From positions 34,703-98,702 of the forward strand of contig JAPOSW010000123.1 in assembly GCA_026709505.1 (NCBI GenBank): DNA of 64,000 nucleotides. Direction: 5' to 3'. Position 1 is the first letter of the stretch; the number at the start of each line of letters is the position of its first letter. Position numbers and translations under genes: made by a program. This DNA is from Gammaproteobacteria bacterium (GTDB lineage Bacteria; Pseudomonadota; Gammaproteobacteria; Arenicellales; Poriferihabitantaceae). Below, piece by piece: positions 18,178-46,278 of the stretch. The notes under the pieces are model-generated. The model saw only the letters and a list, made by a program, of their open reading frames with translations, was not told the DNA's origin and made no database searches.

Positions 18178-19673
18178 GGCCTGACCTCACTGGTTTCGGA
18201 ATCTGGAATTTCCACTTCGTCCGGAATCTCGGCTTCAGCATCATTCCCATGAACAGAAGCACTGCCCGTCTCTTCCTGAATCGCTAGTTTCTCTTCAATG
18301 GCTGTGGATTCAGACACGAATTCCTTCATGTCCAGGCCTTTGGCAACCCTGACTTTCGAGATGCGGTGTGAATCCATTTCCAGAATTTGAATAATGATGT
18401 CCTCATCCTCGACGATATCTCCTTCCCTGGGCAATCTGTCAAGAAGACGAAAGGCATAGCCGGCGATAGTGGTCATGCGCGGATCTTCAATTCCGAAATT
18501 GGTGAGATTGTCAAAGTCATTAAGCCGCATGTCCCCGGGCACCACATAGTCATTATTGTCCTTTTCTTCATAGTAGTGGACGGTGGCTCTTGATCCGCCG
18601 CTGATATCGCCGAAAATGAAGCTCAATACGTCACGCATGCTGATGAATCCCTCTACCCCGCCGAATTCATTGAGACATGCCGCAGCCCGAACCTGATTGG
18701 ACTGAAAGAATTCAAACATTTCATCAACCTTCTTGGTGAGCGGTACAACCACGGGAGGATGCATGATGTCCTCCGGTTCATATTTGCTGAGGTCGTTTTC
18801 GTCCAGCACTAGCCGCATAATGTCCTCGGCATGAATGAAGCCCACAAGGTTATCCCGGTGAGTCTTGAATACCGGTACTCGCGGATGCTCGATTGCGATG
18901 AATTTCTCGATCATTTCCTGAACACCCATGTCGACATTCAGAAAGGCCATCTTGGTTCTTGGCGTCATGACCTCGACGATTTCAGTTTCATTGGCCGCAA
19001 GCAAATTATGGATTAGCGCTCTTTCGGTTGCATCCAGAACGCCCTCTTCGGATACCTGCTCGACCAAAGTGAGGAACTCGTCAACCTGCAGGATGTTGTC
19101 TGCTGCCTTGGCCTCGCCGACAATCAAGGTGGTTATGCGGTCGGCGATGCCCCGCACAGCCCACTGGATAGGCGTGATCAAGCGAATCCAGAGCCAAAGC
19201 GGTTTTGCGACAATTCTTGTGCTGTACCTTACAGGATTTGTAACAGCTATGGTTTTCGGGGTGACTTCTCCAAGCAGCAGCAAGAGGGGAATCATGATCA
19301 CCATGTTGATGATGAAGGCTTTTTCAGGCTCATAAAGCATCACCACGATGGTGGCCATATTCACGGCGGATGCAATATTGACCAATTCATTGCCGGTCAG
19401 TATGGAAATAATCAGCCTTCGAGGCTGATCAAGCAACTCGTGGATTGTTTCGGAGCTGGGGTTTCTTTCTCTGCGCAGTTGCTGCAGATCAAGCCGGGAC
19501 AGTGAAAAGAGAGCAGTTTCTGAACTGGAAAAGAACGCGGAGCAGATCAGCAGACACAGCTGCAGGACGAGTCGGATAATCATATCCGTCTCTGACAGCA
19601 GGGCCACGTCGAAGGCGAAATAACTCGCAACCGACTGCCCATACTGACCGAAATGATACAGTATTTGCTCCAT
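18174..19673 (-). CDS. Second CNNM/DUF21-CBS membrane protein
   Basis: 499 aa with SSSETALFSL DUF21 motif and CBS pair. ATGA 4-nt overlap with the downstream paralog. Confidence 0.8.
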   Translation of the reverse strand: MEQILYHFGQYGQSVASYFAFDVALLSETDMIIRLVLQLCLLICSAFFSSSETALFSLSRLDLQQLRRERNPSSETIHELLDQPRRLIISILTGNELVNIASAVNMATIVVMLYEPEKAFIINMVIMIPLLLLLGEVTPKTIAVTNPVRYSTRIVAKPLWLWIRLITPIQWAVRGIADRITTLIVGEAKAADNILQVDEFLTLVEQVSEEGVLDATERALIHNLLAANETEIVEVMTPRTKMAFLNVDMGVQEMIEKFIAIEHPRVPVFKTHRDNLVGFIHAEDIMRLVLDENDLSKYEPEDIMHPPVVVPLTKKVDEMFEFFQSNQVRAAACLNEFGGVEGFISMRDVLSFIFGDISGGSRATVHYYEEKDNNDYVVPGDMRLNDFDNLTNFGIEDPRMTTIAGYAFRLLDRLPREGDIVEDEDIIIQILEMDSHRISKVRVAKGLDMKEFVSESTAIEEKLAIQEETGSASVHGNDAEAEIPDEVEIPDSETSEVRP

Positions 19674-20245
19674 CGGACTGTTTAGTCAAGCGCGTACTTG
19701 GGGGGTGTTCTGGCATGAAATGCCGAGCTCCATATATGACCGAACCTGAAATATCGCCTATTTTGAGGATAATTTCAATAGGTTTATAGATTGAGGCTAG
19801 CGTTGGAGAAATTTTTACGATGCATGGCTTGTCAGTTGGATTTGACTGCATAATTGGCTGTTCTAAAAAAGAACAAAATATGGCACAAACAAAATTGCCG
19901 GATTAGGCTTTAAGCCCTGATCGCTTCTAATCCGGTATATTATGACTAATTCTACTTTCCAGCTTGAAACGGTTGGAGCTATTTCCCCAGCGATTCAGGC
20001 CTGATAGACAATGGCCGGCACAATCAATCTCATAGTCTATCTGGCATTTCGATTCTTGCTCCGCGGCGCGTTCGCGAATTTTGTGCCAGTCAGCCGCCAC
20101 CCTTGGATCAACCCCCATTTTTCCTTGATGACGGTGTCCACGCACCGCGGGGTTGGGGCTTTTAAGCAACAGGAACAAAACCAGTAATTACGAGGAACTG
20201 CTTCGAAAAAATAACCGTATTTGTGTCAGGTTTACCTATATCTAT

Positions 20246-20892
20246 CCCCAATTCCACTCTGAAGTGCAACACCCTGGGGGTCGGCAGCATGCTGCAGACG
20301 GCCAGCAGGCGGATGACAATCTCCATACCGTTAACCATGGAGAACTGTCATGCGCAAAAGCTGCCGCCAGCTGGCCTGCGATGAACGATGCCAGATCAAG
20401 GTTCTGTTGTCCGGAGTCCTGTCGATTGGCGAGATCGCCCGCAACCGCGGAGAGCGCGGCTACCGCCACCGGCAGGCCCAGGACAGGGCCCGTGCCCGCC
20501 GCAGCCGTGCTTCCAGCGTTCCGCGCAAGCTGACGGAGGGCTGGAGTCCGGAGCAGACGAGGGCCGCCTGAACCGCTGCCCCCGCAAGGCGCTGGGCTGC
20601 CTCATGCCATTCGAGGTCTTTCACGAAGTCCTGCCCTCGCCCTGATTCCCTGGCCGGGTCAGGTCCTGAGCTGCGCCCGCAACCGGCGGGCGATGGATAC
20701 ATGCGCCTGCAGGGCCCGCACTGGGTCTTGCAGTGCCGGACTGCATCGCTTATGATGCCGGAAAGTCGAGACTGTCGCCGCTTCGGCATCGAACGAACGC
20801 TTCCAGATCCTGGCTTCCCCCCTGTCTGTCCATGAAGGCTATGCCTTCATGGACAGACAGGGGCAGTGTTGCACTTCGGACTGGAACTGGGG
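20246..20892 (+). mobile_element. Internally deleted IS30-family element (MITE-like relic, transposase pseudogene)
   Basis: Terminal inverted repeats CCCCAATTCCACTCTGAAGTGCAAC (20246-20270) and GTTGCACTTCGGACTGGAACTGGGG (20868-20892) match at 22/25 positions. The interior keeps only an IS30-like N-terminal HTH (DERCQIKVLLSGVLSIGEIARN), then GWSPEQ joined directly to the C-terminal LNRCPRKALGCLMPFEVF. The DDE core is missing. The segment is GC-rich relative to host DNA. Confidence 0.7.
20819..20863. repeat. Perfect 21-bp-stem hairpin (CCCCTGTCTGTCCATGAAGGC-TAT-GCCTTCATGGACAGACAGGGG)
   Basis: Exact inverted repeat with a 3-nt loop, read directly from the sequence. It lies just inside the right IR of the IS30 relic. 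Confidence 0.9.
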
Positions 20893-21055
20893 TACTTAAA
20901 AATGGCCGCTATTCTAGGCAAATACTCTCATTTTGACCTCAAGCGCATTCCAGTTTGTCAAAATTGAAGCCCAGAATCTACAAGCTTACCCAGAATTAGA
21001 ATTGTTGTTACTTTTATCCATAATTCGAACCCATAACTCTGCCGAGGTCAGTTAA

Positions 21056-21808
21056 GTGGACATAATATTGGTACTTTGTGCAGGAAAAGTCAGCATTGCT
21101 TCTGGCTTAACTCAGGTGAAGCAACTATACAAACTGGCAAAAGTGCTGCCAGATAAGCAATGTTTATATTTGGACCGTGAGCGGGATATTGATATTCCTT
21201 TATTGCCAGATGAGTTTATTATTCTTCATGGCGGGGAAAAAATATTTTCTGAAAATCCGGGTTTGGATATCGGCAATAATCCCGCAGTCCGACGACCGAT
21301 TTACCCGATATTCAATGACAGGAAAATCAGTCCGGGACTTGAATGTGCGAAGCTATCCGGCGCTGAACTTCAGCAACATGATACAAACTTTCCATCAATC
21401 AGACTTTTTGCAGACATTGAAGGTGGGCTTGATCAATTGATCAGCCCAGAAATGACTCTTGTGGTTCAAGACAATGACAGTTACTTTACGGTTCCTATTG
21501 ATCAAGAGGGATCTATAGAGTTAGAAGAATGTGCAAAACATGGTCGAAGGCCGCCAAAGGGAGATGGATATTTTTATCGTATTAAAATTGACGGTGAGAA
21601 GTATAAGGTTACCGAAATGAAGATGGTTGGAGAAGATATTCTCCGTTTGGTTGGCAAAACTTATGACGAATGGACTATGAATCAAAAACTGAAAGGGGGG
21701 CGTAGAGTTTCAGTTGAAAAAGATCAGTTAGTTGACCTGTCAGTGCCGGGAGTAGAGAGGTTTGAAACTGCAAAAAGGCAGGCGCAGCAAGGTATAGATC
21801 ATTGGTGA
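21056..21808 (+). CDS. Multi-ubiquitin-type protein: three tandem beta-grasp (Ubl) repeats, C-terminal ...QQG-IDHW
   Basis: 250 aa, GTG start with GAGG 8 nt upstream. Three internally similar units each end in a D-x-hhh-L-x-x-G-x-E-[KR]-F type block (DIPLLPDEFIILHGGEKIF / DQLISPEMTLVVQDNDSYF / DQLVDLSVPGVERFET). The third unit (YFYRIKIDGEKYKVTEMKMVGEDIL...) resembles the 'Multiubiquitin' family as I recall it. Sits in an operon with E2 and JAB-E1 genes. Confidence 0.65.
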   Translation: MDIILVLCAGKVSIASGLTQVKQLYKLAKVLPDKQCLYLDRERDIDIPLLPDEFIILHGGEKIFSENPGLDIGNNPAVRRPIYPIFNDRKISPGLECAKLSGAELQQHDTNFPSIRLFADIEGGLDQLISPEMTLVVQDNDSYFTVPIDQEGSIELEECAKHGRRPPKGDGYFYRIKIDGEKYKVTEMKMVGEDILRLVGKTYDEWTMNQKLKGGRRVSVEKDQLVDLSVPGVERFETAKRQAQQGIDHW

Positions 21809-22179
21809 GAATTTTAACCGATGAAGACGAGCAATTTTTGAATGCTAATGGATTCAACTGGAAGTTGCTGTTCGAAAACAATGCCAAACAGGGTCTATTG
21901 GTGAAGCGATTTCAGGTACCGACTGGCTATCAGCCTGATACGGTTGACCTGATGATTTTGATTCCTGAAAATTATCCTGTAGCAGGTATCGACATGTTTT
22001 ATCTTTGTCCTGCAATTTTTCGTGATGATGGCAGGAATATCAATGCCCTAGAGATTGAAAATCATTTTGATAGGCAATGGCAGCGATGGTCTAGGCATTA
22101 TGATTGGCACGCCGGTTACTGCAGCATTGCAACACATATAAAGTTTGTAAGCAATCAACTTGAATCTGAACTTAACTGA
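21802..22179 (+). CDS. Prokaryotic E2-like (UBC-fold) protein, Prok-E2 family E-like
   Basis: 125 aa. LILIPENYPVAGIDMFYLCPAIFRDDG, then WQRWSRHYDW, matches my recollection of the Prok-E2_E family. Candidate catalytic Cys69 lies ~10 residues after the YP motif. The start is TTG 21802 or GTG 21805 (GTGA overlap with the Ubl stop). Confidence 0.6.
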   Translation: MVRILTDEDEQFLNANGFNWKLLFENNAKQGLLVKRFQVPTGYQPDTVDLMILIPENYPVAGIDMFYLCPAIFRDDGRNINALEIENHFDRQWQRWSRHYDWHAGYCSIATHIKFVSNQLESELN

Positions 22180-22208
22180 AATTATTTTCCAATTGTTCAG
22201 TACACTCC

Positions 22209-23660
22209 ATGCCACACACTCTCTCTTTAACTAAAAGTTTATACGATGATCTTCGTACCCATCTTTACCCAGATGATGGGTTTGAGTCTGTTGCAGTAAT
22301 GCTATGCCATTCTGGCATTGGTAAACTAGGCCTTCGACTGATGGCAAATCAATTAATGCTGGTTGATACTGAGCTTTGTTATGAAAGATCATCAAACAGA
22401 TTATGCTGGCCATTTGCATCCTGCTTCAACCCCGAAAAGATCTCCGAAATTGATGAACTTGGCTTGTCGATAATGACAATTCACAGTCATCCAAGTGGAT
22501 TCAGTGATTTTTCAGAAATCGATGATAAGAACGACTGTGAGTTATTCTCTTCTGTGTGCAGCTGGTTTGATGACGACAGGCCTAATGGATCGGCAATCAT
22601 GCTTCCGAACGGGCAAATACTTGCACGACTTGTGAACCATGCAGGAAAATTTACCTCGATTCAAACGGTTTCGGTGATTGGTGAAGATATAAGTATTTGG
22701 AAACAAAACAGCATAGGAAGAAAAGTTCCAAGTTTTGGATCAAGGATTGCGCAAACTTTTGGAAAGGGAACTTATCAATTATTAAGAAAAATCCGCGCAG
22801 GCGTGGTTGGTTGCTCAGGAAGTGGAAGTATCGTTGTTGAGCTATTGTCTCGAAATTGTATAGGTCATTTAGTGATTGTTGATCCAGACGACGTAGAAAC
22901 AAAAAACCTGAATAGAGTCATCAATTCAACAAAGGCCGATGCAAGAAAGAAGACTCCCAAAGTGGAGTTACTCAAACGTTCCGTAAGACGGATGGGCATG
23001 GGTACTGAGGTGGATGCACTAAAATCCGATACAAGAGATAGACAGGTCATAGAAGCTTTGGCAGATTGCGATGTGCTATTTGGATGTGTGGATTCAGCAG
23101 AGGGGCGCTATCATCTCGAATGCATAGCATCGGCCTACTTCATTCCCTATTTTGATGTTGGCGTGAATCTGGAAAGTGATGATATGGGCAATATACTGCA
23201 AGCGGATGCAGTGTCGCACTACATGCACCCTAATAACACTAGTTTGATGGCTCGTGGAGGGTATACGACAGAACAAGTAACTGCGGAAAGCTGGCATCGA
23301 ACTAACAGGGGGTATTACGAAAGGCAGCGGGTAGCAGGATACCTAGCTGACATTAGTGAGGATCAACCTGCAGTCATGTCGATAAATATGCAGGCAGCTT
23401 GTCTCGCATTTAATGACTTCATTGCTCGTCTTCACAACTTTCGACTTGACAGCAATGATGATTTTTCTACTCAAAGGTTTCGGTTTGTGCATGGATATTC
23501 TGAAAATCTGGGAAATAAAGTTACCGTTGATTCCCTGTTTTCCAAATTTTCCGGCAAGGGGGAGAGAAGCGACCTAATCAAGATGTTAAAAGGCAGAGGT
23601 AGTCTAATTCCTGAAGGCAGTGCAACGGTTCAGAGCATAAAAGCCGAGGTGGGTGGATAG
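22209..23660 (+). CDS. JAB/JAMM metalloprotease - E1 (ThiF/MoeB-type adenylyltransferase) fusion protein
   Basis: 483 aa. Has a complete JAMM signature: Glu26, then H92-S-H94-x7-S102-xx-D105 (HSHPSGFSDFSEID, nt 22482-22523). The ThiF-like Rossmann region is VVGCSGSGSIVVELLSRNCIGHLVIVDPDDVETKNLNR, followed by DVLFGCVDS. Confidence 0.85.
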   Translation: MPHTLSLTKSLYDDLRTHLYPDDGFESVAVMLCHSGIGKLGLRLMANQLMLVDTELCYERSSNRLCWPFASCFNPEKISEIDELGLSIMTIHSHPSGFSDFSEIDDKNDCELFSSVCSWFDDDRPNGSAIMLPNGQILARLVNHAGKFTSIQTVSVIGEDISIWKQNSIGRKVPSFGSRIAQTFGKGTYQLLRKIRAGVVGCSGSGSIVVELLSRNCIGHLVIVDPDDVETKNLNRVINSTKADARKKTPKVELLKRSVRRMGMGTEVDALKSDTRDRQVIEALADCDVLFGCVDSAEGRYHLECIASAYFIPYFDVGVNLESDDMGNILQADAVSHYMHPNNTSLMARGGYTTEQVTAESWHRTNRGYYERQRVAGYLADISEDQPAVMSINMQAACLAFNDFIARLHNFRLDSNDDFSTQRFRFVHGYSENLGNKVTVDSLFSKFSGKGERSDLIKMLKGRGSLIPEGSATVQSIKAEVGG

Positions 23661-23774
23661 TTCATCCAGAGATCTTCAAGGCTGGACGTATGAGTGATTA
23701 CTGTATCCGGAAAGCATGGGTGATTGGGGGCGAAACCCTACCTGTTTTTGTTCCAAAAAAAACTGAGGTTAGTC

Positions 23775-26510
23775 ATGTCTCAGAGCTTAATCATTAATTC
23801 TCCCTATTCTTGCCCAGATAGGCATTGGGTACCAGGAACGGACGGTGAGCCATTAACCCGAAAGGACGGGCGTAGGCCTGCAGGCTACACGATAGCAGAC
23901 CCGACTGCAAAACCCTACCACGATAGAGGTATATTTGTTGAATTGCCAATTGTGAATCAGATTCGACAACGAGTTGATCAATGGCGGATGTCGGGCTACG
24001 AGGGTATAACCGGGATAACCAAGGTGCTTCTTGAGCATTGGCTGGACAATGACCAAAGGGAGTTTCCGTTTTTCTTTTGTCAAATTGAGGCGATTGAGAC
24101 ACTTATCTGGCTGATAGAGTCTCCAGAATCAGAAAAAAGCGGTATAGAAATCAAATCCGACGGTGGAGAATTCCTTCGCTTGTGTTCAAAACTTGCTACT
24201 GGAACGGGTAAAACAACGGTTATGGCGATGTTGATAGCATGGCAATCAATAAACCGTTCTACATACCCTATAGATCGGCGTTTTTCACAAAACTTTTTCG
24301 TTGTTGCTCCGAATCTGACAGTAAGAGAACGGCTTGCTGTTCTTGTGCCCTCAAACCAACCTAACTACTACGATGAATTTGGAATTGTCCCGCCATCACT
24401 GCGGCAGAAGTTTCTGCAAGCAAACGTATTGGTTCGTAACTGGCACGCTCTGAATTGGGAAACAGAAAACACAATAGAGAAGAAGAAAGGTGTAGATAAG
24501 CGAGGAGTCAAAAGTGATGAGGCATACACGCGCGAAGTATTGGGTGATATAGCACATGCCAAAAACATTGTTGTTATAAACGATGAAGCTCACCATGCAT
24601 GGCGTGTTCCAGCAGGTTCAAGGATTAAGGGTGTCCGGAAAGAAGAGATCGATGAAGCGACAAAATGGGTCGGTGGGCTTGATCGAATTCATAAAACTCG
24701 AGGCATACTATCATGCTTTGATTTTTCGGCTACTCCGTTTGCACCGAACGGAAGAAAAACTTCTGAAGAAGCATTATTTGACTGGATTATCAGTGATTTT
24801 GGGCTGAATGATGCTATCGAGTCTGGGCTAGTGAAAACGCCGAGAGTCGTGATTCGAGATGATGCCTTGTCCAATGCAAAAACCTACAAGTCACGCTTGT
24901 ATCACATATATAGTGATAACGAAGTGAAAGACGATCTAAACAGAAAGGCAAAGCCGCATGACCTTCTTCCAGACTTTATTGTCAATGCATACACATTACT
25001 AGGATATGACTGGAACAAGACCAAAGACTTGTGGAGTGATCGAGAAACTCCCCCTGTGATGATCACTGTAGCTAATCGTACAGAAACTGCCGCGAGAATC
25101 AATCATGCATTTATTAACAACAACATACCTGGTGTTGACTCACTGTCTGATCCAGATGGAATTTTGCACATTGATTCGAAAGTACTTAAGGAGGCAGAAG
25201 ATGAAAGCATGGAATCCAGTTCGGCAAAAAAGCAAGGAGCAACCGCTTTGCGGGAAAAAGTCAACACTGTGGGGCAAATGGGAAAGCCGGGCGCAAAGGT
25301 GCAAAATGTCATCTCTGTGGGGATGTTGTCCGAGGGTTGGGATGCGCGAACTGTTACTCAGATAATGGGGTTGCGTGCTTTTTCTAGCCAGTTGCTTTGT
25401 GAACAAGTTATTGGACGAGGATTGCGACGTTCTTCCTATGAGGTCAACGAAACAACTGGAATGTTCGACCCAGAATATGTCAATGTTTTTGGGGTGCCAT
25501 TCAGTTTTTTACCGCATGTTGAAGAGTCAGGCAACCCACCTGCAGTTTCTGAGAAAATCACCGTTCAGCCTGTTAAGGAAAAAAAACAGTTTGCCATCAA
25601 ATGGCCTAATGTAGTCCGTGTAAACAGGACTCTAGAATCGAAACTTACCATTGGTTCCTGGGAAAAGGTTTTACCGCTGACAATTGATTCGGCTCAAACG
25701 GTGCAGTTGGTGGAATTAGCGCCGACAGTTGATAACCAGCCTGATGTTTCAAAAATTTCTGACATAGATCTCAATGAATTAGGGGCAAAAAACCGTATTC
25801 AGACGACCATATTCAGGACGGCAAAAGCCGTATTTGAAGAGGAATCGCTGGGTTGGAAAGGATCACAGGCTATTTTGATGGCGCAGCTTGTACAACTTGC
25901 AGAGCAGTTCCTCAATTCCGAAAAAATAAAGGTCATCCCTGAACTGTATAACCAGGATAGATGGAAAAGACAACTGGTAATCTCATTGAATATGTCTAGA
26001 GTCATCCGTCATTTCTTGAACATGATTCAGGAGGAAAACACTCAAAAAGCAGAGCTTGTACTTGACGAGAATTACCCTATTCGTTCAACTGAAGACATGC
26101 GACCATGGCGTACTGGGAAGCCATTCGAGGCAACAAATAAAAGCCATATCAATTATTGCGTATTTGACAGTGCATGGGAAGAATCTGCGGCAATCGAGCT
26201 TGATCGAAACGATGTTGTGGCATCATGGGTGAAAAATGATCATCTCGGATTTGAGGTGTTATACACTTATCAAGGAGTGGTCAGAAAATACAGGCCTGAT
26301 TATCTGGTCTATTTGAAATCTGACAAGACTTTGGTTCTGGAAATCAAAGGACAACAGGAAGATCAGGACAATGCAAAACATTCGTACATGAAGCAATGGA
26401 TTAAAGCGGTTAATGGAGATGGTAGATTTGGTTTCTGGCAGTTTACTGTTTCGCGCTCTCCGTCTGATTTAAAAGATATTCTCGTTCAGGCAAATGGTGA
26501 GTCACCGTGA
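23775..26510 (+). CDS. res: Type III restriction enzyme Res subunit (SF2 helicase + C-terminal PD-(D/E)XK nuclease)
   Basis: Start moved to ATG 23775 (MSQSLIINSPY, GAGG RBS). Helicase motif I is ATGTGKT, motif II NDEAHH and motif VI QVIGRGLRR. The C-terminal nuclease motif is YRPDYLVYL...LVLEIKGQ. Confidence 0.85.
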   Translation: MSQSLIINSPYSCPDRHWVPGTDGEPLTRKDGRRPAGYTIADPTAKPYHDRGIFVELPIVNQIRQRVDQWRMSGYEGITGITKVLLEHWLDNDQREFPFFFCQIEAIETLIWLIESPESEKSGIEIKSDGGEFLRLCSKLATGTGKTTVMAMLIAWQSINRSTYPIDRRFSQNFFVVAPNLTVRERLAVLVPSNQPNYYDEFGIVPPSLRQKFLQANVLVRNWHALNWETENTIEKKKGVDKRGVKSDEAYTREVLGDIAHAKNIVVINDEAHHAWRVPAGSRIKGVRKEEIDEATKWVGGLDRIHKTRGILSCFDFSATPFAPNGRKTSEEALFDWIISDFGLNDAIESGLVKTPRVVIRDDALSNAKTYKSRLYHIYSDNEVKDDLNRKAKPHDLLPDFIVNAYTLLGYDWNKTKDLWSDRETPPVMITVANRTETAARINHAFINNNIPGVDSLSDPDGILHIDSKVLKEAEDESMESSSAKKQGATALREKVNTVGQMGKPGAKVQNVISVGMLSEGWDARTVTQIMGLRAFSSQLLCEQVIGRGLRRSSYEVNETTGMFDPEYVNVFGVPFSFLPHVEESGNPPAVSEKITVQPVKEKKQFAIKWPNVVRVNRTLESKLTIGSWEKVLPLTIDSAQTVQLVELAPTVDNQPDVSKISDIDLNELGAKNRIQTTIFRTAKAVFEEESLGWKGSQAILMAQLVQLAEQFLNSEKIKVIPELYNQDRWKRQLVISLNMSRVIRHFLNMIQEENTQKAELVLDENYPIRSTEDMRPWRTGKPFEATNKSHINYCVFDSAWEESAAIELDRNDVVASWVKNDHLGFEVLYTYQGVVRKYRPDYLVYLKSDKTLVLEIKGQQEDQDNAKHSYMKQWIKAVNGDGRFGFWQFTVSRSPSDLKDILVQANGESP

Positions 26511-26645
26511 TGCAAAAAACACTTCACTGCCTACCCAAATCACACATTATCACCTGTCGATACTTCCTTTCATGAGTTGCATTGGGAATGAATACAGATG
26601 CCGAATAATTCATTGTAAATCCCGCATCAACTAATCAGTTTAGAG

Positions 26646-29219
26646 ATGAAGAAATCCCCAAAAGACAGGCCAATTAAATCATACGATCACAAAACCGCAA
26701 AACGGGCTAACAATCCTCCTGTAGGATTGGTGACTCCAGCCACTGATCCTGACGTGGTAGTAAGGCAGAGCTACGAATATGATCCACATATAGATCCCTG
26801 TTTTCAGTGGGCTGGCAAGACTGAACGCAGCTCATTTGAAGTGCCCATTCAGTCGCTGCATGTTCATGAACGTATCGACCCACGCACCATAATTGAAGCG
26901 GTTAGAAAACGGGGAAGTGATGATGGACAGACATCGTTGTTTGACAACGTGCGCAATGCTCCACTACGTGATGAAATAGAGTTCTATCAGCATGCACATG
27001 ACTGGAGCAATCGACTCATTGCTGGCGATTCACTACTCGTCATGAATTCGCTTTTGCAAAAGGAAAACATGGCAGGTCAAGTGCAATGCGTGTTCATGGA
27101 CCCACCCTATGGAATTAAATATGGTTCAAATTTCCAGCCTTTTGTAAACAAGCGAGAAGTTCGGGATGGCAAGGATGAAGATCTAGCTCCTGAACCAGAA
27201 ATGATTAAGGCTTTTCGGGATACTTGGGAACTAGGAATTCATTCGTACCTCTCTTATTTGAGGGATCGGCTACTGTTAGCAAAAGAATTGTTGAATAAGA
27301 GAGGAAGTGTGTTTGTTCAGATAGGTGATGAGAATGTGCATCGAGTAAGTCTTATCATGGATGAGATTTTTGGTGCAGAAAATCGCATGTCAACCATCTC
27401 CTTTGCTACCACCAGCGGCAGCTCAAGTAAGCATCTGCCTTCTGTGGCCGACTATTTGCTCTGGTATGCCAGGGACAAGCGACAGGCGAAGTATCGACAG
27501 TTGTATGAGACTTTAAGCCGGGCAGAGGTTATCGACTACTTCAATTGGGATGTGGCTGTAGAGTTGCCGGATGGAAACAGCCGAAAAGTAACGGCTGACG
27601 AACGAGTTAATCCCGACAAGTTTCTCCCAGAAGGTGCTCGCATATACCGACGTGTTGGACTGGATTCGCAGGGAGTCTCAACAACTGGTCGTTCAGACCC
27701 GTATGAGTGGAATGGAAGAATTTTCCATTGCTTGAAAACCCGGCAATGGTCCATATCCAAAGAGGGCATGGACCGACTGGCCGAGTTGAACAGGCTGGAA
27801 GCGCTTGAAGGCCAGAATTCCCTGATGTGGAAGAAATACGAAGATGAAGTACCAGGCCGCCGCATCCATAATGTCTGGCCTGCACAGATGTATCCCAGCG
27901 AAAAAAGGTATGTTGTTGAGACTAGTGTAAAGGCGATTCAGCGGTGTATTTTAATGAGTACAGATCCAGGTGACTTGGTGTTTGATCCAACTTGCGGTAG
28001 TGGGACAACCGCATTTGTTGCAGAACAATGGGGGAGACGTTGGATGACATGTGATACATCCAGAGTTGCATTGACTCTGGCACGGCAACGTTTGATGACT
28101 GCTACATTTGACTATTACAAACTTGCATGGCCAGATGAGGGTGTAGGCAGCGGTTTCAAATATAAATCTGTGTCAAAAGTATCGCCAAGCACTCTAATCG
28201 ACGATAGTCCACCACCAAGTATATATTTGTATGACCAGCCCGAAAAAGATACGGCAAAAGCCCGGGTCACTGGGCCATTTACAATGGAGGCCGTACCGTC
28301 TCCAACCGTGAGAGCGATTGACGATGCAGGGTCGGAGAATTCATCAGTGGCGGATGGATCAGTGTCTCGTAGCGGTGAGACTTTGCGCCAGAGTGAGTGG
28401 CGAAGTGAGTTGCTCAAGACGGGCATTCGCGGTAAAGGCGGACAACGCATTAAATTTTCTCGAGTAGAGTCTCTGCCCTTTCATTGGTTACATGCTGATG
28501 CAGAAACTCGATCAGTGCACACAGATGATGACTTTAATGACGAGTCATCATCAGAATTCCAGCCACAACGAGCAGTAGTAAGCTTTGGACCACAGCATGC
28601 ACCGTTGGAGCAAAGACAGGTTGAATTGGCGTTGCAAGAAGCGGCAAGTTTAAAACCTACACCGACAATGGTCATCTTTGCCGCACTTCAGTTCGACCCG
28701 GAAGCTGCAAAAGACATTGATGAAACGAAATGGGAAGGTGTAAGCCTGCTGAAAGTACAGATGAATACCGATCTGCACACAACAGATCTCAAGAAAAAAC
28801 GCGCCAGCAATGAGGGATTCTGGTTGGTTGGACAGCCTGATGTAAGCTTAACGCAGATTCGTCAAGGCAAGTTTTCAGGACAGTGGCAGGTACAAGTTCA
28901 GGGGTTTGATTATTTTAACACCCGGACTTGCGAGCTTGAATCAGGTGATGAAAAGCGCGTCGCCATGTGGATGTTGGACTCCGATTATGATGGCAGAAGT
29001 TTTTATCCTCGCCAGGTGTTTTTTCCTATGGCAAGCCAAAAGGACGGCTGGGCAAAATTAGCAAAAAACCTCAAGGCCGAGATTGATGAGGATCTGATTG
29101 AGGCCTATCACGGAGTTCAGTCACTCCCATTTGAATTGGGGAAATATGAACGTGTTGCAGTAAAGATTGTGGATGACCGTGGTATAGAGAGTCTAAAGAT
29201 TCTGCCTATTTATTCTTGA
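26646..29219 (+). CDS. mod: Type III-like beta-class DNA methyltransferase (Mod) with long C-terminal extension
   Basis: 857 aa. Motif IV DPPY (FMDPPYG, nt 27099-27110) precedes motif I FDPTCGSGTT (~residue 446), which is the beta-class order. About 400 aa follow motif I. Confidence 0.85.
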   Translation: MKKSPKDRPIKSYDHKTAKRANNPPVGLVTPATDPDVVVRQSYEYDPHIDPCFQWAGKTERSSFEVPIQSLHVHERIDPRTIIEAVRKRGSDDGQTSLFDNVRNAPLRDEIEFYQHAHDWSNRLIAGDSLLVMNSLLQKENMAGQVQCVFMDPPYGIKYGSNFQPFVNKREVRDGKDEDLAPEPEMIKAFRDTWELGIHSYLSYLRDRLLLAKELLNKRGSVFVQIGDENVHRVSLIMDEIFGAENRMSTISFATTSGSSSKHLPSVADYLLWYARDKRQAKYRQLYETLSRAEVIDYFNWDVAVELPDGNSRKVTADERVNPDKFLPEGARIYRRVGLDSQGVSTTGRSDPYEWNGRIFHCLKTRQWSISKEGMDRLAELNRLEALEGQNSLMWKKYEDEVPGRRIHNVWPAQMYPSEKRYVVETSVKAIQRCILMSTDPGDLVFDPTCGSGTTAFVAEQWGRRWMTCDTSRVALTLARQRLMTATFDYYKLAWPDEGVGSGFKYKSVSKVSPSTLIDDSPPPSIYLYDQPEKDTAKARVTGPFTMEAVPSPTVRAIDDAGSENSSVADGSVSRSGETLRQSEWRSELLKTGIRGKGGQRIKFSRVESLPFHWLHADAETRSVHTDDDFNDESSSEFQPQRAVVSFGPQHAPLEQRQVELALQEAASLKPTPTMVIFAALQFDPEAAKDIDETKWEGVSLLKVQMNTDLHTTDLKKKRASNEGFWLVGQPDVSLTQIRQGKFSGQWQVQVQGFDYFNTRTCELESGDEKRVAMWMLDSDYDGRSFYPRQVFFPMASQKDGWAKLAKNLKAEIDEDLIEAYHGVQSLPFELGKYERVAVKIVDDRGIESLKILPIYS

Positions 29220-29228
29220 TAAAAGATC

Positions 29229-30506
29229 ATGTTTAAAGAACTAGAAATTACAAACTTTAGGGGCTTCAAAGAGTGCATAACAGTGAAGTTCGCCCCGATC
29301 ACTGTACTTATAGGACGCAACAATGCTGGTAAGTCTTCTATCGTTAAGTTTTTGCTAATGCTCCAACAGTCATTAGGAACTGGAAAATCAGGATTTTTGG
29401 TTTCAAGAGGAGAAAGGACAGACCTAGGACCATTCCACAACCTAAAAAATACGCTATCCGGAGAAAAGACTCTGGCTTTTTCACTAACCATGGAAGATTT
29501 TACAAGTCCCAGAGATTCACTGTCTCTATACCTGCAAAAGAAAAACAAGACACTCTGGCCAAAGAATGGGGTATTTCAGACAGCAGCAGAGGTTTCTTAC
29601 AGTAAGAAAATTCCATTTCAGGGAAAGAAACACAGTTTTTGTCTCAAAATCGATGGCGAAGAAGTGACTGGCCGAACAGCTGGAATCAGTCAAAATTCTA
29701 ATTTTCTGGATTTTGCAGATGCTCAGAAATCAAAAATCGATTCTCATGCAGACAGTAGCGAAATTGCTGCAGAGAACGCATGTCTTGAAGTAATTGCGAA
29801 AAAACTTGTGACAATCAGACACATCAGCCCAGATAAGAAAAGTGTTCCGAGGTCGTTTGATACTGGTGAATTTACTCCTGAAACTGATGTTGGGCAAGAT
29901 GGAAGATTTGCGCTACATCATCTGTGGAATCTTCATGAAGATGGCGGTCAAAATGAGATGGATTTTGTGAGTCAATACATGGAAAAAGTTTTGGATGTCA
30001 CGGATATCAGGTTCACGGACCCAAAAGATGGCGATCTTTCTCAATGCATGGCCAACAATCAAAATACTAGGGCCAACAACAATTTAGCCGACTTTGGGCA
30101 TGGAGTAAGCCAATGTTTTCCAATCTTTGTGCAGGGAGCGTTAATGCCTCCTTATTCGACCCTAATTTGTGAACAGCCCGAGTCTCAAATCCATTCTAGT
30201 GCTCAACTGGAGTTGGGGCAATATTTTGCCGATTTATGGACCAATAGAAAAGTGGCCTCAATAATTGAGACGCATAGTGACAGCATTTTGCTAAGGCTTA
30301 GGCGATTGATTTCAACAGGTAAGTTGCAAGCATCTGATGTCAGTGTGGTCTATCTATCTGTTGATTCCATCGATAATGAACAGTCGGTTTCGGTTAGAAA
30401 CTTGGGTATTGAAAGTGACGGTTCCATGGAGGACGGTCTTCCAATGGAATTCTTTCATCCAAACATATGGGAACTCTTGGAAATGGTAGAAAGTAGTGAA
30501 GAATAG
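29229..30506 (+). CDS. ABC/SMC-type AAA ATPase (AAA_15/21 with DUF3696-like C-terminus)
   Basis: 425 aa. N-terminal LEITNFRGF and Walker A GRNNAGKSS (K35), signature-like FGHGVSQ, Walker B-like LICEQPESQIH and H-loop IETHSDSILLRLRRLI. Starts 9 nt after the mod stop. Confidence 0.8.
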   Translation: MFKELEITNFRGFKECITVKFAPITVLIGRNNAGKSSIVKFLLMLQQSLGTGKSGFLVSRGERTDLGPFHNLKNTLSGEKTLAFSLTMEDFTSPRDSLSLYLQKKNKTLWPKNGVFQTAAEVSYSKKIPFQGKKHSFCLKIDGEEVTGRTAGISQNSNFLDFADAQKSKIDSHADSSEIAAENACLEVIAKKLVTIRHISPDKKSVPRSFDTGEFTPETDVGQDGRFALHHLWNLHEDGGQNEMDFVSQYMEKVLDVTDIRFTDPKDGDLSQCMANNQNTRANNNLADFGHGVSQCFPIFVQGALMPPYSTLICEQPESQIHSSAQLELGQYFADLWTNRKVASIIETHSDSILLRLRRLISTGKLQASDVSVVYLSVDSIDNEQSVSVRNLGIESDGSMEDGLPMEFFHPNIWELLEMVESSEE

Positions 30507-31014
30507 TGCGACAATGGACGCAATTGCCATGGATACCAACGTTTTTGGACATCTCACGCATTATTCCGGAATTAACAAGAATCAGCACATAAACAAACTG
30601 CTTAAATATCTGATTAAGAGCCAGATCAGCCTGCTGGTTGATAAGGACAATAAGATTTTGAATGAATATAAACATCATCTGAATAAACCAACATTCAAAC
30701 GTAAATATGACAAGAGAGAAGAATCGTATTTCCTGCAGTATTTTATGGATCCAGCAAGGCACAAACCGGTTTTTGTGAACGAAACAGACGATTTATGGAA
30801 CGCAATCATCGCTATCGTAGATGATCCTAATGAAGTCGATCAAAGGTTGGTATATGTTGCTTTTTGTAAAGGCAAATTATTATTATCCAATGATAATGAA
30901 GATATAGTAAGTCAAAGAAGCTTGTTATTCGAGAAGACAAAAGGCAAACGTGAAAAAGGTAGTGACATTATGAACTCGCAGCAGGCATTCAATACGATAT
31001 TGAGTAATGACTGA
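30496..31014 (+). CDS. Small PIN-like protein (putative nuclease partner of the ATPase)
   Basis: 172 aa from GTG 30496 (11-nt overlap with the ATPase gene), or from ATG 30514. N-terminal AMDTNVFGHL resembles PIN strand 1 (hhDTNVh), and C-terminal KLLLSNDNEDI resembles the terminal PIN h-h-T/S-x-D motif. I recognise no other family. Confidence 0.45.
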   Translation: MKNSATMDAIAMDTNVFGHLTHYSGINKNQHINKLLKYLIKSQISLLVDKDNKILNEYKHHLNKPTFKRKYDKREESYFLQYFMDPARHKPVFVNETDDLWNAIIAIVDDPNEVDQRLVYVAFCKGKLLLSNDNEDIVSQRSLLFEKTKGKREKGSDIMNSQQAFNTILSND

Positions 31015-31260
31015 AACCAGTATGGGAAATGAGGCTCATCTAGCTGCTGCCGATTACTTAGTTGATCATCGGGCACCCACATAATCTTCACTTCGGCACC
31101 CAGTGATTGACCGGGGCTTCCGACCCAATCAGGATCCATTCCGGAACCTGAACGAATGCAAGGAATGGACAGGTGGATTCGAGGCGGTCCGTCAAATATT
31201 TCCTTTATCCCTATGAATCATATTACAATGCCTGGCATCAGTCGTATCCAATAGTTCATT

Positions 31261-33402
31261 ATGAGTTCTGCGGCGACAAAAATTTCAGCATACCCTGACT
31301 TGGACAATCCGAGCCTCTATCTCAATCGGGAACTGACCTGGCTTGAGTTCAATCGCAGGGTACTTTTTGAAGCAACGGATCAAGACAATCCCCTGCTTGA
31401 AAGACTCAAGTTCATCGCCATTTTTGCTTCCAACATGGATGAATTTTTCATGAAGCGGGTCGGCGGGCTCAAGCTTCAGGTTGCGGCTGACGTGTCTGAA
31501 TTGACCGATGACGGAAGGAGTCCCCTGCAGCAAATTCAGGAGTGCAGGCAACTGGTTGAGGAGTTGACCGATTTTCAGGAGTCTGCTTTCGAATCCATCT
31601 CCAGTGAACTCAAGGAGCACAGTATTGCAGTCATCAATTATCAGGATTTGCGGCAACCGGGACAAAACAAGCTGAGGCAGTATTATCTCGAGAATGTATT
31701 CCCGTTGATGACGCCGCAGATTTTTGACCCCGCACACCCCTTCCCTTTCATCTCCAACCTATCCTTGAATCTGGTGATTACGTTTCCGGCCGAATCTTCC
31801 GAAGAGAACGCCATTGCGAGGGTCAAGGTGCCGATCGGCACTGGCGTACCACGCTTCATCAAAGTGGATGATTATCGTTTTGTCCCGCTTGAGCAAATCA
31901 TCGCCAATAATCTTGACCTGCTGTTTCCTGGCGAAAGTCAATTCGAATATGACTTCTTTTTCGTTGCCCGCAATGCCAGCACGGAACGTCAGGAATCCGG
32001 GGCATCCGACCTGCTGTCAATGATTGAGTTGGAATTGCGGGACCGTAGAATCGCCCCCATTGTCCGGATGGTAGTCAACAGGGGAATGAATCCTGAACGC
32101 CAGAACATGCTCACTGAATTGCTGGGTCTAGATTCAGAACTGGACGTGTACGAAACCGAAGGCCTGCTGGCCCGAAGTGACCTGTTTGAACTCACCGGTC
32201 TGCCAATTGCAAACTTGCGCTATCCGCCGCATCAACCGGTTAATCATCATCGACTACAGGATAATCAGCGGAGCATCTTCAATCTCATCCGCGAAGAGGA
32301 AGCGATACTGATCCAGCATCCTTATGAATCATTTTCGGGGTCTGTGGTCAGATTTCTGGGTGAAGCGGCACGAGATGAATCAGTCAGGGCGATCAAAATG
32401 ACCTTGTACAGAACCGATCGCGAAACCCGTATTGTTGATCTTTTGATTGAAGCCGCGAATAATGGCAAGCAGGTTGCTGTTGTGGTCGAAATCAAGGCAA
32501 AGTTTGACGAAGCCAATAACATTACTTGGGCAGAACATCTCGAAGAGGCTGGCATTCACGTGACCTATGGCGTGGTCGGATTCAAAACCCACAGCAAGGT
32601 GCTCCTGGTCATACGCCGAGAAAAAAACCAGTTGCAGCGCTATGTTCACATTGGTACCGGGAATTATCATGGCGGAACCGCCAAGCTCTATACCGACCTT
32701 GGACTTCTGACCTGCGACAGGGAGATTGGCGAGGATGCTACCGAGCTTTTCAATTTCCTGACTACCGGTCATATCAAGAAGCGCCAGTTCAAGCATATTG
32801 TAATTGCGCCGATTGATCTGAAAAAAGAGCTTAGACGTCGGATTGCTGCTGAAATCGAGCACGTCAAAAACGGCAAAACCGGCCTTATACGAATGAAGAC
32901 CAATGCACTGGAAGACAAGGATGTGGTCAAGGACCTGTACAAGGCATCCATTGACGGCGTCAAGGTTGACCTTATCGTTCGGGACACCTGTCGACTGCGA
33001 CCAAAGGTTGCCAATTTATCCGAAAATATTACCGTGATCAGCGTTGTTGGTCGATTCCTGGAGCACAGCCGAATTTTCTACTTTCACAACAATGGCAGGC
33101 ACGAGTACTTCATCGGTTCTGCCGACATCATGAAGCGCAATCTGGAGAGCCGGGTTGAAGTAGTCACCCCCATTGAGAAAAAATCCCTAAAGGAATCACT
33201 GAAACTTATCCTCGACACTCTAATGAATGATCACGTCGACAGCTGGGAAATGTGTTCTGATGGAAGCTACGTCTCTCGCAAGAAAGACGACCCGAAGGCA
33301 GTGGGTTGCCAGCTTCAGCTGCTCGAATACTCACAGGCCCATGTCCGCAGCAAGCGCAGTAGAAATAAGAAACAGTTCAAGACGATCAGAAAAAGGAACT
33401 GA
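31261..33402 (+). CDS. ppk: Polyphosphate kinase 1
   Basis: 713 aa. N-terminal YLNRELTWLEFNRRVLFEA and the two PLD-like HKD regions (HSKVLLV, LEHSRIFYF) are typical of PPK1. Confidence 0.95.
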   Translation: MSSAATKISAYPDLDNPSLYLNRELTWLEFNRRVLFEATDQDNPLLERLKFIAIFASNMDEFFMKRVGGLKLQVAADVSELTDDGRSPLQQIQECRQLVEELTDFQESAFESISSELKEHSIAVINYQDLRQPGQNKLRQYYLENVFPLMTPQIFDPAHPFPFISNLSLNLVITFPAESSEENAIARVKVPIGTGVPRFIKVDDYRFVPLEQIIANNLDLLFPGESQFEYDFFFVARNASTERQESGASDLLSMIELELRDRRIAPIVRMVVNRGMNPERQNMLTELLGLDSELDVYETEGLLARSDLFELTGLPIANLRYPPHQPVNHHRLQDNQRSIFNLIREEEAILIQHPYESFSGSVVRFLGEAARDESVRAIKMTLYRTDRETRIVDLLIEAANNGKQVAVVVEIKAKFDEANNITWAEHLEEAGIHVTYGVVGFKTHSKVLLVIRREKNQLQRYVHIGTGNYHGGTAKLYTDLGLLTCDREIGEDATELFNFLTTGHIKKRQFKHIVIAPIDLKKELRRRIAAEIEHVKNGKTGLIRMKTNALEDKDVVKDLYKASIDGVKVDLIVRDTCRLRPKVANLSENITVISVVGRFLEHSRIFYFHNNGRHEYFIGSADIMKRNLESRVEVVTPIEKKSLKESLKLILDTLMNDHVDSWEMCSDGSYVSRKKDDPKAVGCQLQLLEYSQAHVRSKRSRNKKQFKTIRKRN

Positions 33403-45101: not shown

Positions 45102-45386
45102 ATGAAGACTCCTGAAAACAAGCCAAAAAGAATATGGACAGTATCCGAAGCAAAGTCCCGCTTATCAGAGATTATGCGCCTTGCTGAGCAGGAAGGGCCT
45201 CAGCAGATAGGCGTAAGACGCCCTTTTGTTGTCGTATCAGTTGACCAATGGTACTCAATGGCTAAGCCTCGCCAAAGTGCAGGCAAATGGCTGGTGGAAA
45301 ATATGCCGGCAGGCATTGGACTAGACACTCAATTTGACAGGAAATCCAATAGAGATATTCCATTTCATGGAGGCAAAAAGGAATGA
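45102..45386 (+). CDS. Type II antitoxin (Phd/YefM- or VapB-type)
   Basis: 94 aa from ATG 45102. RIWTVSEAKSRLSEIMRLAEQEGPQ is a typical antitoxin N-terminus. 4-nt overlap with the downstream PIN toxin gene. Confidence 0.7.
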   Translation: MKTPENKPKRIWTVSEAKSRLSEIMRLAEQEGPQQIGVRRPFVVVSVDQWYSMAKPRQSAGKWLVENMPAGIGLDTQFDRKSNRDIPFHGGKKE

Positions 45387-45826
45387 GAGGTTTTCTGATT
45401 GACACGAATGTTCTTTCGGAATTGACAAGTCCAGTACCTAGTCTCAGGGTACGGGCATTTTTATCAGCACAATCAGACTTGTGGTTTTCTACCATTGTTC
45501 TGCATGAACTGAATTATGGTATTGAATTACTTCCCCAAGGCAGGAAACGAAACAGGATTGATTCAGCAATTTCCAAATTTCTCACAGAGTATATGGATTG
45601 GATTTTACCGGTCGACTCTTCAGTGGCTAGCCAAGCTGCTGTATTTCGTGCACAGATGCACCATAAAGGACGAAACCTTGATCTTGCAGATGCTTTAATT
45701 GCCGCAACCGCCAAGGTGAACGGTTTATGCCTGGTAACAAGAAACGTTCAGGATTTTGAGCATTTGCCAATCGATATCTTGAATCCCTGGGAATCCGCAC
45801 TCCATCACCCTATAACTGAGGCCTAA
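45383..45826 (+). CDS. vapC: PIN-domain toxin VapC
   Basis: 147 aa with FLIDTNVLSEL, conserved acidic positions and C-terminal LVTRNVQDFEH. Confidence 0.85.
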   Translation: MRGFLIDTNVLSELTSPVPSLRVRAFLSAQSDLWFSTIVLHELNYGIELLPQGRKRNRIDSAISKFLTEYMDWILPVDSSVASQAAVFRAQMHHKGRNLDLADALIAATAKVNGLCLVTRNVQDFEHLPIDILNPWESALHHPITEA

Positions 45827-46278
45827 TCTTCTTCTGTTCCAGTTCCCGCCCCCGTTAATCGTGAATGCACACTCTCTTGAACATAGATTTTCCTGGCAAA
45901 ACTATCCAGATTTCCCCAGGTTTCGGCCTCAATTTCAATACGATCACCGCTACTGGCAGTCACTTGCGGCATTATTACCCCATTCTTCAAATCCAATCCA
46001 CGAGATCTAGCCAATGCAGTTCCCAGGGTTCCGAGTGGAGGCAATTCCTTGCCGCATACAGCCTGATCAAGTGAGACAAGTAACTCGCGTATTTCCTTGC
46101 CATTTTGATCCAGATCCTTTGCGATCTGGGTGACATCCCACTTGCTCATAAACGGAGCTGCCTGCAGGAGATCTTCCGCATCGCAAAGCGGCAAGCCAGC
46201 ACCAAGGGCTGCACGATACAATTGCACGCCAAGTTCACCGCGCGATCTGACCGTCACGGATTCAGGGCTGGTAGCCAC
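45823..46278 (-). CDS. Hypothetical protein (last gene of the TRAP/HisD-like operon)
   Basis: 151-aa ORF overlapping the upstream gene by 25 nt. No family recognised. Coding status is supported mainly by operon context. Confidence 0.45.
   Translation of the reverse strand: MATSPESVTVRSRGELGVQLYRAALGAGLPLCDAEDLLQAAPFMSKWDVTQIAKDLDQNGKEIRELLVSLDQAVCGKELPPLGTLGTALARSRGLDLKNGVIMPQVTASSGDRIEIEAETWGNLDSFARKIYVQESVHSRLTGAGTGTEED

Follow-up and report, generated by a model that had tools for sequence, protein, structure and literature searches.

A candidate ABC ATPase and PIN-fold defence pair embedded in Type III-like restriction-modification operons

The 64,000-nucleotide stretch of contig JAPOSW010000123.1 analysed here (hereafter, the window), from a gammaproteobacterial assembly (GCA_026709505.1), carries two adjacent genes encoding an ATP-binding cassette (ABC) type ATPase and a small protein with a predicted PIN fold, next to a Type III-like restriction-modification (R-M) operon. 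An earlier reading of the letters alone (hereafter, the sequence-only reading) had proposed the pair as a two-gene defence module, and both open reading frames (ORFs) were found as described there, including the 11-nt overlap or 8-nt gap between them. The pair closes a co-directional series of seven genes, in the order Multi_ubiq, E2, JAB-E1, Res, Mod, ATPase, and PIN, flanked by ppk and transporter-like genes. Features of the two core genes are as follows, with residues of the small protein numbered throughout on its 166-amino-acid (aa) form.

29229-30506, + strand: ABC ATPase of NsnB/HEC-03B type, 425 aa, core gene 1 (from the ORF list)
29313-29339: ATPase Walker A, GRNNAGKSS
30093-30113: ATPase GxG signature variant, FGHGVSQ
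30162-30182: ATPase Walker B, LICEQPE
30267-30278: ATPase H-loop, ETHS
30496-31014, + strand: predicted PIN-fold gene, core gene 2, 172 aa from GTG 30496 or 166 aa from ATG 30514
30532-30534, 30640-30642, 30664-30666, and 30838-30840: predicted PIN active-site codons D7, D43, E51, and D109
30889-30894 and 30976-30978: further conserved PIN codons N126-D127 and S155

The ATPase stop codon (TAG, 30504-30506) gives the 11-nt overlap with the frame opened by GTG 30496; alternative starts for the small protein are ATG 30514, which lies 8 nt past the last base of that stop, and ATG 30529. The upstream GTG is favoured, since homologues share N-termini of the form MNxLTxDxIAIDTNVF and overlapping starts are called in the two closest relatives.

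All of the ATPase motifs quoted in the sequence-only reading (LEITNFRGF, GRNNAGKSS, FGHGVSQ, LICEQPE, and ETHS) are present and, when 36 homologues are aligned, lie in columns with little or no variation, the residues concerned being G29, N31, G34, K35, and S36 in Walker A, G290, G292, S294, and Q295 in the signature variant, E315, Q316, P317, and E318 in Walker B, and E347, T348, H349, and S350 in the H-loop. The protein matched Pfam AAA_15 (1.3e-19) and also AAA_21. Among PADLOC models, the highest scores were for NsnB (6.5e-43; residues 1-409 on model positions 1-332 of 345) and PDC-M55A (2.4e-39, full length), followed by a partial match to HEC-03B (4.5e-30) in two stretches, the best of which spans residues 267-415, while the AriA, GajA, and Old models matched the N-terminus only. 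An AlphaFold2 model (predicted local distance difference test score, pLDDT, 87.8) retrieved PtuA, Rad50, and SMC heads as its best Foldseek matches (E ~1e-12, probability 1.0), among them the PtuA structures 8eea, 9nnb, and 9e91 from Septu and retron-Septu; no solved structure was found for a close relative. The first protein, for which more than 840 homologues were recovered, is accordingly an SMC/Rad50/PtuA-type ABC ATPase of the NsnB / HEC-03B / PDC-M55A group, and the SMC/ABC-type head read from its motifs is borne out.

Throughout the clade, the catalytic Glu after Walker B is replaced by Gln (E-Q-P-E). A GxGxxQ signature together with an [E/Q]-Q-P-E Walker B is common to the genuine HEC-03 loci L044 and L076, to most ATPases of the PDC-M55/Menshen kind (L046 and L053), and to a third PIN-partnered clade (L061, L063, and L069), the exception being the PDC-M55 locus L041, whose ATPase has E-E-P-E. 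A like deviation in signature and Walker B has been described for NsnB in the Menshen system (PMC12065111). Because Gln stands at the position of the catalytic Glu and the signature is GxGxxQ, slow or no ATP hydrolysis is suggested as a shared property of these ATPases.

For the small protein, an AlphaFold2 model built on a 103-sequence alignment (pLDDT 94.8, predicted template modelling score 0.91) shows alternating strands and helices, and all of the first 25 Foldseek matches in the PDB are PIN proteins (probability 0.96-1.0), the best being VapC4 (5h4g), VapC (5ecw), FitB (2h1c), and PAE2754 (1v8p), and also PcrIIC1. Assigned against the secondary structure of this model, the conserved positions are distributed among the homologues as follows.

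D7: 103 of 103, end of strand 1
D43: 103 of 103, end of strand 2
E51: 97 of 103, helix after strand 2
D109: 102 of 103, N-terminus of the helix after strand 3
N126: 100 of 103, after strand 4
D127: 99 of 103, after strand 4
S155: 102 of 103, C-terminal strand-helix

Judged from alignment and model, the small protein is predicted to adopt a PIN fold, and its acidic site, D-(D)-E-D-(N)D, is almost invariant and looks catalytically competent. The two motifs from which a PIN nuclease had been read, AMDTNVF and LLLSNDNEDI, are both present, as is the VapC ORF used as comparator (LIDTNVL ... LVTRNVQDF; ~45365-45835, + strand); however, the protein does not stop at LLLSNDNEDI, as had been supposed, but continues for about 35 further residues, including a conserved strand and a helix bearing the nearly invariant S155.

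The small protein first appeared to be an orphan, with a word-indexed search returning three close relatives only, which was corrected by an exhaustive HMMER profile search of 1.84 billion representative proteins that recovered 170 representatives at E<=1e-3 (121 at E<=1e-10), nearly all of them 160-190 aa long. A spurious small ORF is likewise excluded by conservation and by the confident fold. Some family members are recognised by Pfam (PIN in 17 of the 103, PIN_3 in 9, and PIN_12 in 5; best E ~1e-6), and the family profile weakly matched the PIN protein 1o4w in the PDB (E=0.12) at the DTNV and LITND motifs; a PDB sequence search with the single protein returned nothing. Relatives were absent from PHROGs, a phage genome collection, and IMG/VR, and there is therefore no sign of a phage origin. 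In one Dehalococcoidia locus (L036, 7311-8564), the ORF that begins at the PIN start runs for 417 aa and overlaps the Res start, and either a fusion or a frameshift artefact may account for this.

Neighbourhoods were surveyed in 77 genome loci retrieved with the ATPase profile, the first 40 of which have an ATPase at least 34% identical to that of the window. A homologue of the small protein lies directly downstream on the same strand in 32 of these 40 (phmmer E 1e-11 to 1e-28), the usual junction being a 4-nt ATGA overlap with the ATPase stop. Because of this recurrence and the usual overlap, the two genes form a conserved, translationally coupled unit, as had been proposed from the window alone, and the pair is co-inherited across many phyla.

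Two-gene units of this kind have been described before. HEC-03 (Hma-embedded candidate 03; Payne, Hughes, Fineran & Jackson 2024), an ABC ATPase with a VapC-like PIN protein embedded in Hma, protects E. coli, with both genes required, and proves toxic when induced (10.1101/2024.01.29.577857). The window pair resembles it as an ABC ATPase with a small single-domain PIN protein embedded in a larger methylase/helicase defence operon, in the GxGxxQ signature, E-Q-P-E Walker B, and ETHS H-loop shared by the ATPases, and in a remote profile similarity between the PIN partners that includes a D...EY motif. Aligned with hhalign against the partners in L044 and L076, which are true HEC-03 loci by their HEC-03A matches, the small-protein family gave 88% probability (E 2.9e-6) over the N-terminal 52 columns, D...EY included, and on these profiles it is probably related to the HEC-03A PIN, if remotely. 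In contrast, the ATPases are only ~25% identical, Pfam DUF3696 is detected in those of L044 and L076 but not in the window clade, the window-clade PIN proteins are 166-185 aa long versus ~159 aa, the host is a Type III R-M operon rather than Hma, and the window clade is often followed by a triple of ubiquitin-like (Ubl), E2, and JAB/E1 genes. The genuine HEC-03 partners match the HEC-03A model at 1e-28 to 1e-31, whereas the clade member in L009 matches at 8e-4 and the window PIN not at all (E<=0.1), so that PADLOC would not call the system.

In Menshen, NsnA (ParB/DUF262) and NsnB (ABC ATPase with DUF3696) are accompanied by NsnC, in which an inactive PIN-like domain is joined to a nuclease, and the DUF3696 tail of NsnB was predicted to bind that PIN-like domain in 23 of 24 AlphaFold 3 models (PMC12065111). 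NsnB and PDC-M55A are the best PADLOC matches of the window ATPase, and its downstream partner has a PIN-like fold, as does the domain for which docking on the C-terminal tail of NsnB is predicted. Yet the window partner is a stand-alone PIN protein with an apparently intact acidic site, unlike the fused and inactive PIN of NsnC, and true loci of the Menshen/PDC-M55 kind (L041 and L053) have a partner of ~340 aa; in L041, a PDC-M55 locus, this partner matches PDC-M55B and a DUF262 gene matches PDC-M55C. Membership in Menshen was rejected, as the partner does not have the NsnC architecture and no NsnA/DUF262 gene is found among the seven co-directional window genes. Another reading of the small protein, as a catalytically dead PIN-like adaptor comparable to the inPIN of NsnC with the real effector elsewhere (for example, Res or a neighbour), is very improbable: the canonical acidic positions are nearly invariant across the 103 homologues and occupy the expected secondary-structure positions of the model, there is no C-terminal effector domain for the protein to deliver, and NsnA is absent from the seven genes, even though NsnB is the best PADLOC match of the ATPase and all 35 NsnC PIN-like families are without catalytic residues and have been proposed as binding modules (PMC12065111).

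Other systems were compared as well. MADS was rejected, with NCBIfam MAD3 covering the N-terminus only, at 27.7 bits against a cutoff of 420, and loci L049-L071 have a different PIN partner of ~155 aa that Pfam recognises. In Septu (PtuAB) and PARIS (AriAB) too, the gene for an ABC ATPase acting as sensor or scaffold is followed by one for a small nuclease effector, and ATPases holding a nuclease have been seen by cryo-EM for both PtuA-PtuB and AriA-AriB; their effectors are, however, HNH (PtuB) and DUF4435/TOPRIM (AriB) rather than PIN, and sequence similarity is confined to the ATPase head. VapC-type PIN toxins share the fold and the acidic active-site pattern with the window protein, which differs in having a 425-aa ATPase rather than a VapB antitoxin as partner, as well as extra helices between strands 2 and 3, a C-terminal strand-helix (ILTSxEA), and the invariant D43. 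In sum, the class of an NsnB-type ATPase with a PIN protein is known and named, and the window clade is a divergent branch of it that current models miss: the PADLOC check returned NsnB, PDC-M55A, and HEC-03B for the ATPase and no model for the small protein. The earlier statement that the pairing is not a named system therefore stands by half, because existing models do not recognise the clade but the ATPase and PIN class already bears the name HEC-03.

The operon in which the pair lies consists, in the window, of the following two genes.

23724-26510, + strand: Type III-like Res helicase-nuclease, 928 aa (Pfam ResIII; NCBIfam NF046055)
26646-29219, + strand: Type III-like Mod methyltransferase, 857 aa (Pfam N6_N4_Mtase 4.6e-30; PADLOC MTase_III 1.4e-150)

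Here mod ends 9 nt 5' of the ATPase start, and Res matches NF046055 ("BPTD_3080 family restriction endonuclease") at 1040 bits against a cutoff of 800; by sequence, Mod and Res are assigned to a Type III-like R-M operon of one clade. When the window proteins were searched against the loci with tblastn, the usual order in relatives, found in ~45 genomes or loci, was Mod-ATPase-PIN-Res, with short same-strand gaps, identities to the window proteins of 50-73% for Mod and 48-66% for Res, and Mod upstream of the ATPase in ~30 loci. Hosts of this arrangement include Gammaproteobacteria, Chloroflexota (Dehalococcoidia), Cyanobacteria, Chlorobiaceae, Planctomycetota, Verrucomicrobiota, Nitrospirales, and Latescibacterota. 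The window is an exception, with Res upstream of mod and the pair after mod, whereas in relatives Res is downstream of the PIN gene. Its position directly behind a Type III R-M pair was thus correctly described for the window but does not hold for most relatives, and the picture of a stand-alone module behind an R-M system gives way to one in which mod and res of a single Type III clade typically enclose the pair. One such copy, in a cultured cyanobacterium, lies on the 52-kb plasmid3 of Planktothrix agardhii NIES-204 (L214; AP017994.1 19599-27178) in the order methylase, ATPase, PIN-like protein, and Res, adjoining a phage-integrase-family gene; the methylase is annotated as "DNA methylase, putative" and the other three as hypothetical proteins, and the locus is a convenient experimental source.

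A second scan, with Mod as query, yielded 80 loci of the same Mod/Res clade, and in 67 of these Mod and Res occur without the pair. In ~30, mod directly abuts res (gap ~30 nt), and in ~33, other genes occupy the junction. The cassettes read from representatives of the latter are listed here, with junction coordinates in brackets.

PD-T4-4: L078 (9571-11548), L104 (9657-12450), and L134
TIR protein PDC-S35: L104 and L134
HEC-01 (ATPase and DUF4276): L111 (3491-5227) and L153
IetAS: L079 (9619-13100)
Ppl-like ATPase: L092 (9664-13560)
DUF2806 and unknowns: L086 and others

Proteins of ~460 aa in the junctions of L102 and L140 are among the unknowns. Since mod abuts res in ~30 loci, the R-M enzyme is independent of the pair, and since known defence cassettes occupy the junction elsewhere, it is a slot for interchangeable, self-sufficient defence modules. 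The mod-res junction of the BPTD_3080-type clade is thus a defence-embedding hotspot, in agreement with the defence context originally proposed for the pair. The guilt-by-embedding study covered Hma, BREX, DISARM, and Type I systems and did not include Type III.

On this evidence, we read the pair as an autonomous two-component cassette, predicted to be anti-phage and of the abortive-infection type, in the HEC-03 / Menshen-NsnBC lineage, with a probability of roughly 0.6. Its autonomy is supported by the loci in which mod abuts res, by the other cassettes in the same junction, by pairs found without R-M (L028, L010/L169, L034/L178, and L208), and by the plasmid copy. The ATPase would oligomerise and hold the PIN protein through a C-terminal tail, and would act as a slow ATP-binding switch rather than a motor, as the Gln in place of the catalytic Glu of Walker B (E-Q-P-E) suggests. 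A phage cue sensed by the ATPase would then release or activate the PIN nuclease, which would most likely cut RNA in a VapC-like manner (probably tRNA, rRNA, or mRNA) and so arrest the infected cell. Placement in an R-M operon would provide for co-expression and co-transfer with a first-line, DNA-targeting defence, and the pair would for that reason act as a second line. The individual steps are less certain than the overall picture.

As a second line behind restriction, with an ABC-type ATPase and a putative RNase both encoded within an R-M operon, the pair would also recall PrrC/RloC. PrrC, in which an ABC-type ATPase is fused to an anticodon nuclease, is encoded in a Type I R-M operon, and the T4 peptide Stp, an anti-restriction factor, unleashes it; in PARIS, AriA/AriB responds to the anti-restriction protein Ocr as its trigger. 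Together these are precedents for a different reading, in which the pair would be accessory subunits of a four-component Mod-ATPase-PIN-Res restriction system that regulate or extend the enzyme; they might, for instance, form a PrrC-like guard that Mod/Res keeps silent until inhibition of the enzyme by a phage anti-restriction protein sets it off. The recurrence of the Mod-ATPase-PIN-Res order in ~45 loci from many phyla with short same-strand gaps would be expected of such a system, and the ATPase co-varies in pairwise identity with Mod (Spearman 0.50) and Res (0.60) about as it does with PIN (0.52), all correlations among the four proteins in 16 complete loci being moderate (0.41-0.76). We nevertheless hold integral subunits to be unlikely, given that the pair is missing from 67 of the 80 loci with this Mod/Res clade and that in ~30 mod abuts res, that unrelated known defence cassettes fill the same junction, that the pair occurs without R-M in several genomes, that the window pair does not lie between mod and res, and that HEC-03 functions without its host system (10.1101/2024.01.29.577857). 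PrrC itself is a single polypeptide of Type I operons with its own anticodon-nuclease domain, whereas the window encodes two proteins with a PIN effector, and no PrrC model is among the 25 PADLOC matches listed for the ATPase. A PrrC-style dependence of the pair on its host R-M system appears unlikely.

Several observations weigh against an autonomous, PIN-effector cassette. The place of the pair between mod and res changes very little from phylum to phylum, and this stability, together with the co-variation with Mod and Res given above, is also compatible with functional integration into R-M; the co-variation test does not separate an integral pair from an embedded one. Contact between ATPase and PIN protein is proposed by analogy with the Menshen models, Septu, and PARIS. 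The Foldseek matches of the small protein reach TM-scores of only 0.5-0.6 (best E 6e-3), and in the window this protein has no match in Pfam, none in PADLOC at E<=0.1, and a sub-threshold NCBIfam match to the PIN toxin family TIGR00305 (E=0.045 only). Lastly, Pfam DUF3696, found in the ATPases of L044, L076, L041, L053, and L061, has no match in those of the window, L009, or Planktothrix. The window-clade ATPase has a tail at the DUF3696-equivalent position, with a conserved LP-EFF motif, and the description "DUF3696-like" given by the sequence-only reading therefore holds by position and homology but not by model match.

Base composition across the region is uneven, with GC of ~0.40 in the ATPase-PIN and Ubl-E2 segments, 0.43-0.48 in Mod and Res, and 0.48-0.50 in the housekeeping flanks, and these steps between 21000-31000 and the flanks fit a mosaic, horizontally acquired island. 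They are also relevant to a further alternative, that of a toxin-antitoxin-like addiction module in which the ATPase neutralises a PIN toxin and the pair mainly stabilises the R-M island or plasmid instead of sensing phage. PIN proteins of the VapC kind are classic toxins, the AAA_21 family is annotated in Pfam as an "AbiEii/Type IV TA" (toxin-antitoxin) ATPase domain, the GC of the cassette is below that of its neighbours, and the Planktothrix cassette is carried by a plasmid and adjoins an integrase; HEC-03 is, moreover, toxic when induced (10.1101/2024.01.29.577857). We find this quite improbable, as there is no small labile antitoxin and the large ATPase comes first in the gene order, the nearest relatives (HEC-03 and Menshen) have demonstrated anti-phage phenotypes, and the slot is filled elsewhere by bona fide defence systems. 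Moreover, toxin-antitoxin-like behaviour and abortive infection are not mutually exclusive.

The anti-phage cassette favoured here is, in part of its range, accompanied by a ubiquitin-like triple, which in the window lies at the start of the seven-gene series.

21056-21808, + strand: multi-ubiquitin-like protein, 250 aa (Pfam Multi_ubiq 5.1e-11; family conserved in 10 loci)
21802-22179, + strand: E2-like protein (Prok-E2_E), 125 aa (Pfam Prok-E2_E 7.5e-30)
22209-23660, + strand: JAB peptidase fused to a ThiF-type E1, 483 aa (Pfam ThiF 3.9e-25; Prok-JAB 2.6e-4)

Genes for Multi_ubiq, E2, and JAB/E1 directly follow the PIN gene in nine of the first 40 loci and in ~20 genomes overall, from several phyla (L161-L181, L208, and L212). 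The resulting five-gene block, ATPase-PIN-multiUbl-E2-JAB/E1, is contiguous and is kept even where R-M is absent (L169, L178, and L208), while the window and its two closest relatives have the rotated order Ubl-E2-E1-Res-Mod-ATPase-PIN, adjoining ppk. None of the 67 Mod-Res loci lacking the pair showed the triple, and a genome scan with a JAB-E1 alignment found it alone in ~26 genomes. Repeated independent association of triple and pair was considered and rejected, since in a neighbour-joining tree of E1 the pair-linked copies form essentially one clade with nested loss, and stand-alone triples a separate one. Given this one clade and its nested loss, the association is explained by one fusion in an ancestor and co-transfer thereafter, and functional coupling of triple and pair is possible. 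We regard it as doubtful that the pair is wired to its neighbours, whether as a guard in the manner of PrrC and PARIS, whose PIN RNase could fire once the Type III enzyme has been disabled by an anti-restriction protein from a phage, or as half of a five-gene Ubl-linked unit, in which ubiquitin-like conjugation could control the ATPase-PIN complex or be controlled by it.

Read as an embedded two-gene cassette, the pair is not a new kind of system but a widely distributed variant whose PIN family is unannotated, whose ATPase tail has diverged, and whose niche is characteristic. The PIN family comprises ~170 clusters at 50% identity without a Pfam, PADLOC, or NCBIfam model and would supply the active PIN partner of an NsnB-like ATPase, its activity being predicted; as the family has no model, current defence finders miss the system. 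HEC-03, Menshen/PDC-M55, and the window clade are united by a DUF3696-type ABC ATPase with a PIN-fold partner, catalytically active or dead, and this shared theme should help to explain how Menshen and HEC-03 operate. While the pair itself may not surprise a specialist, more is to be gained from the Type III mod-res hotspot and from the ATPase-PIN-Ubl-E2-E1 block that recurs among the loci: the former extends guilt by embedding from Hma, BREX, DISARM, and Type I to Type III systems and has yielded further unknown candidates, and the latter is a tractable place to ask what role bacterial ubiquitin-like conjugation plays in immunity.

In the DNA around the cluster, promoter and terminator counts between 20700 and 31400 were no better than in shuffled sequence, and an Rfam search of 19000-32000 gave no match. 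A perfect 21-bp hairpin with a 3-nt loop lies at 20819-20863, just 5' of the seven-gene cluster. It falls near the end of a segment of ~650 bp (20246-20892) with a GC of 0.58 and no convincing ORF, edged by 27-nt inverted repeats (89% complementary), which may be the remnant of a miniature mobile element.

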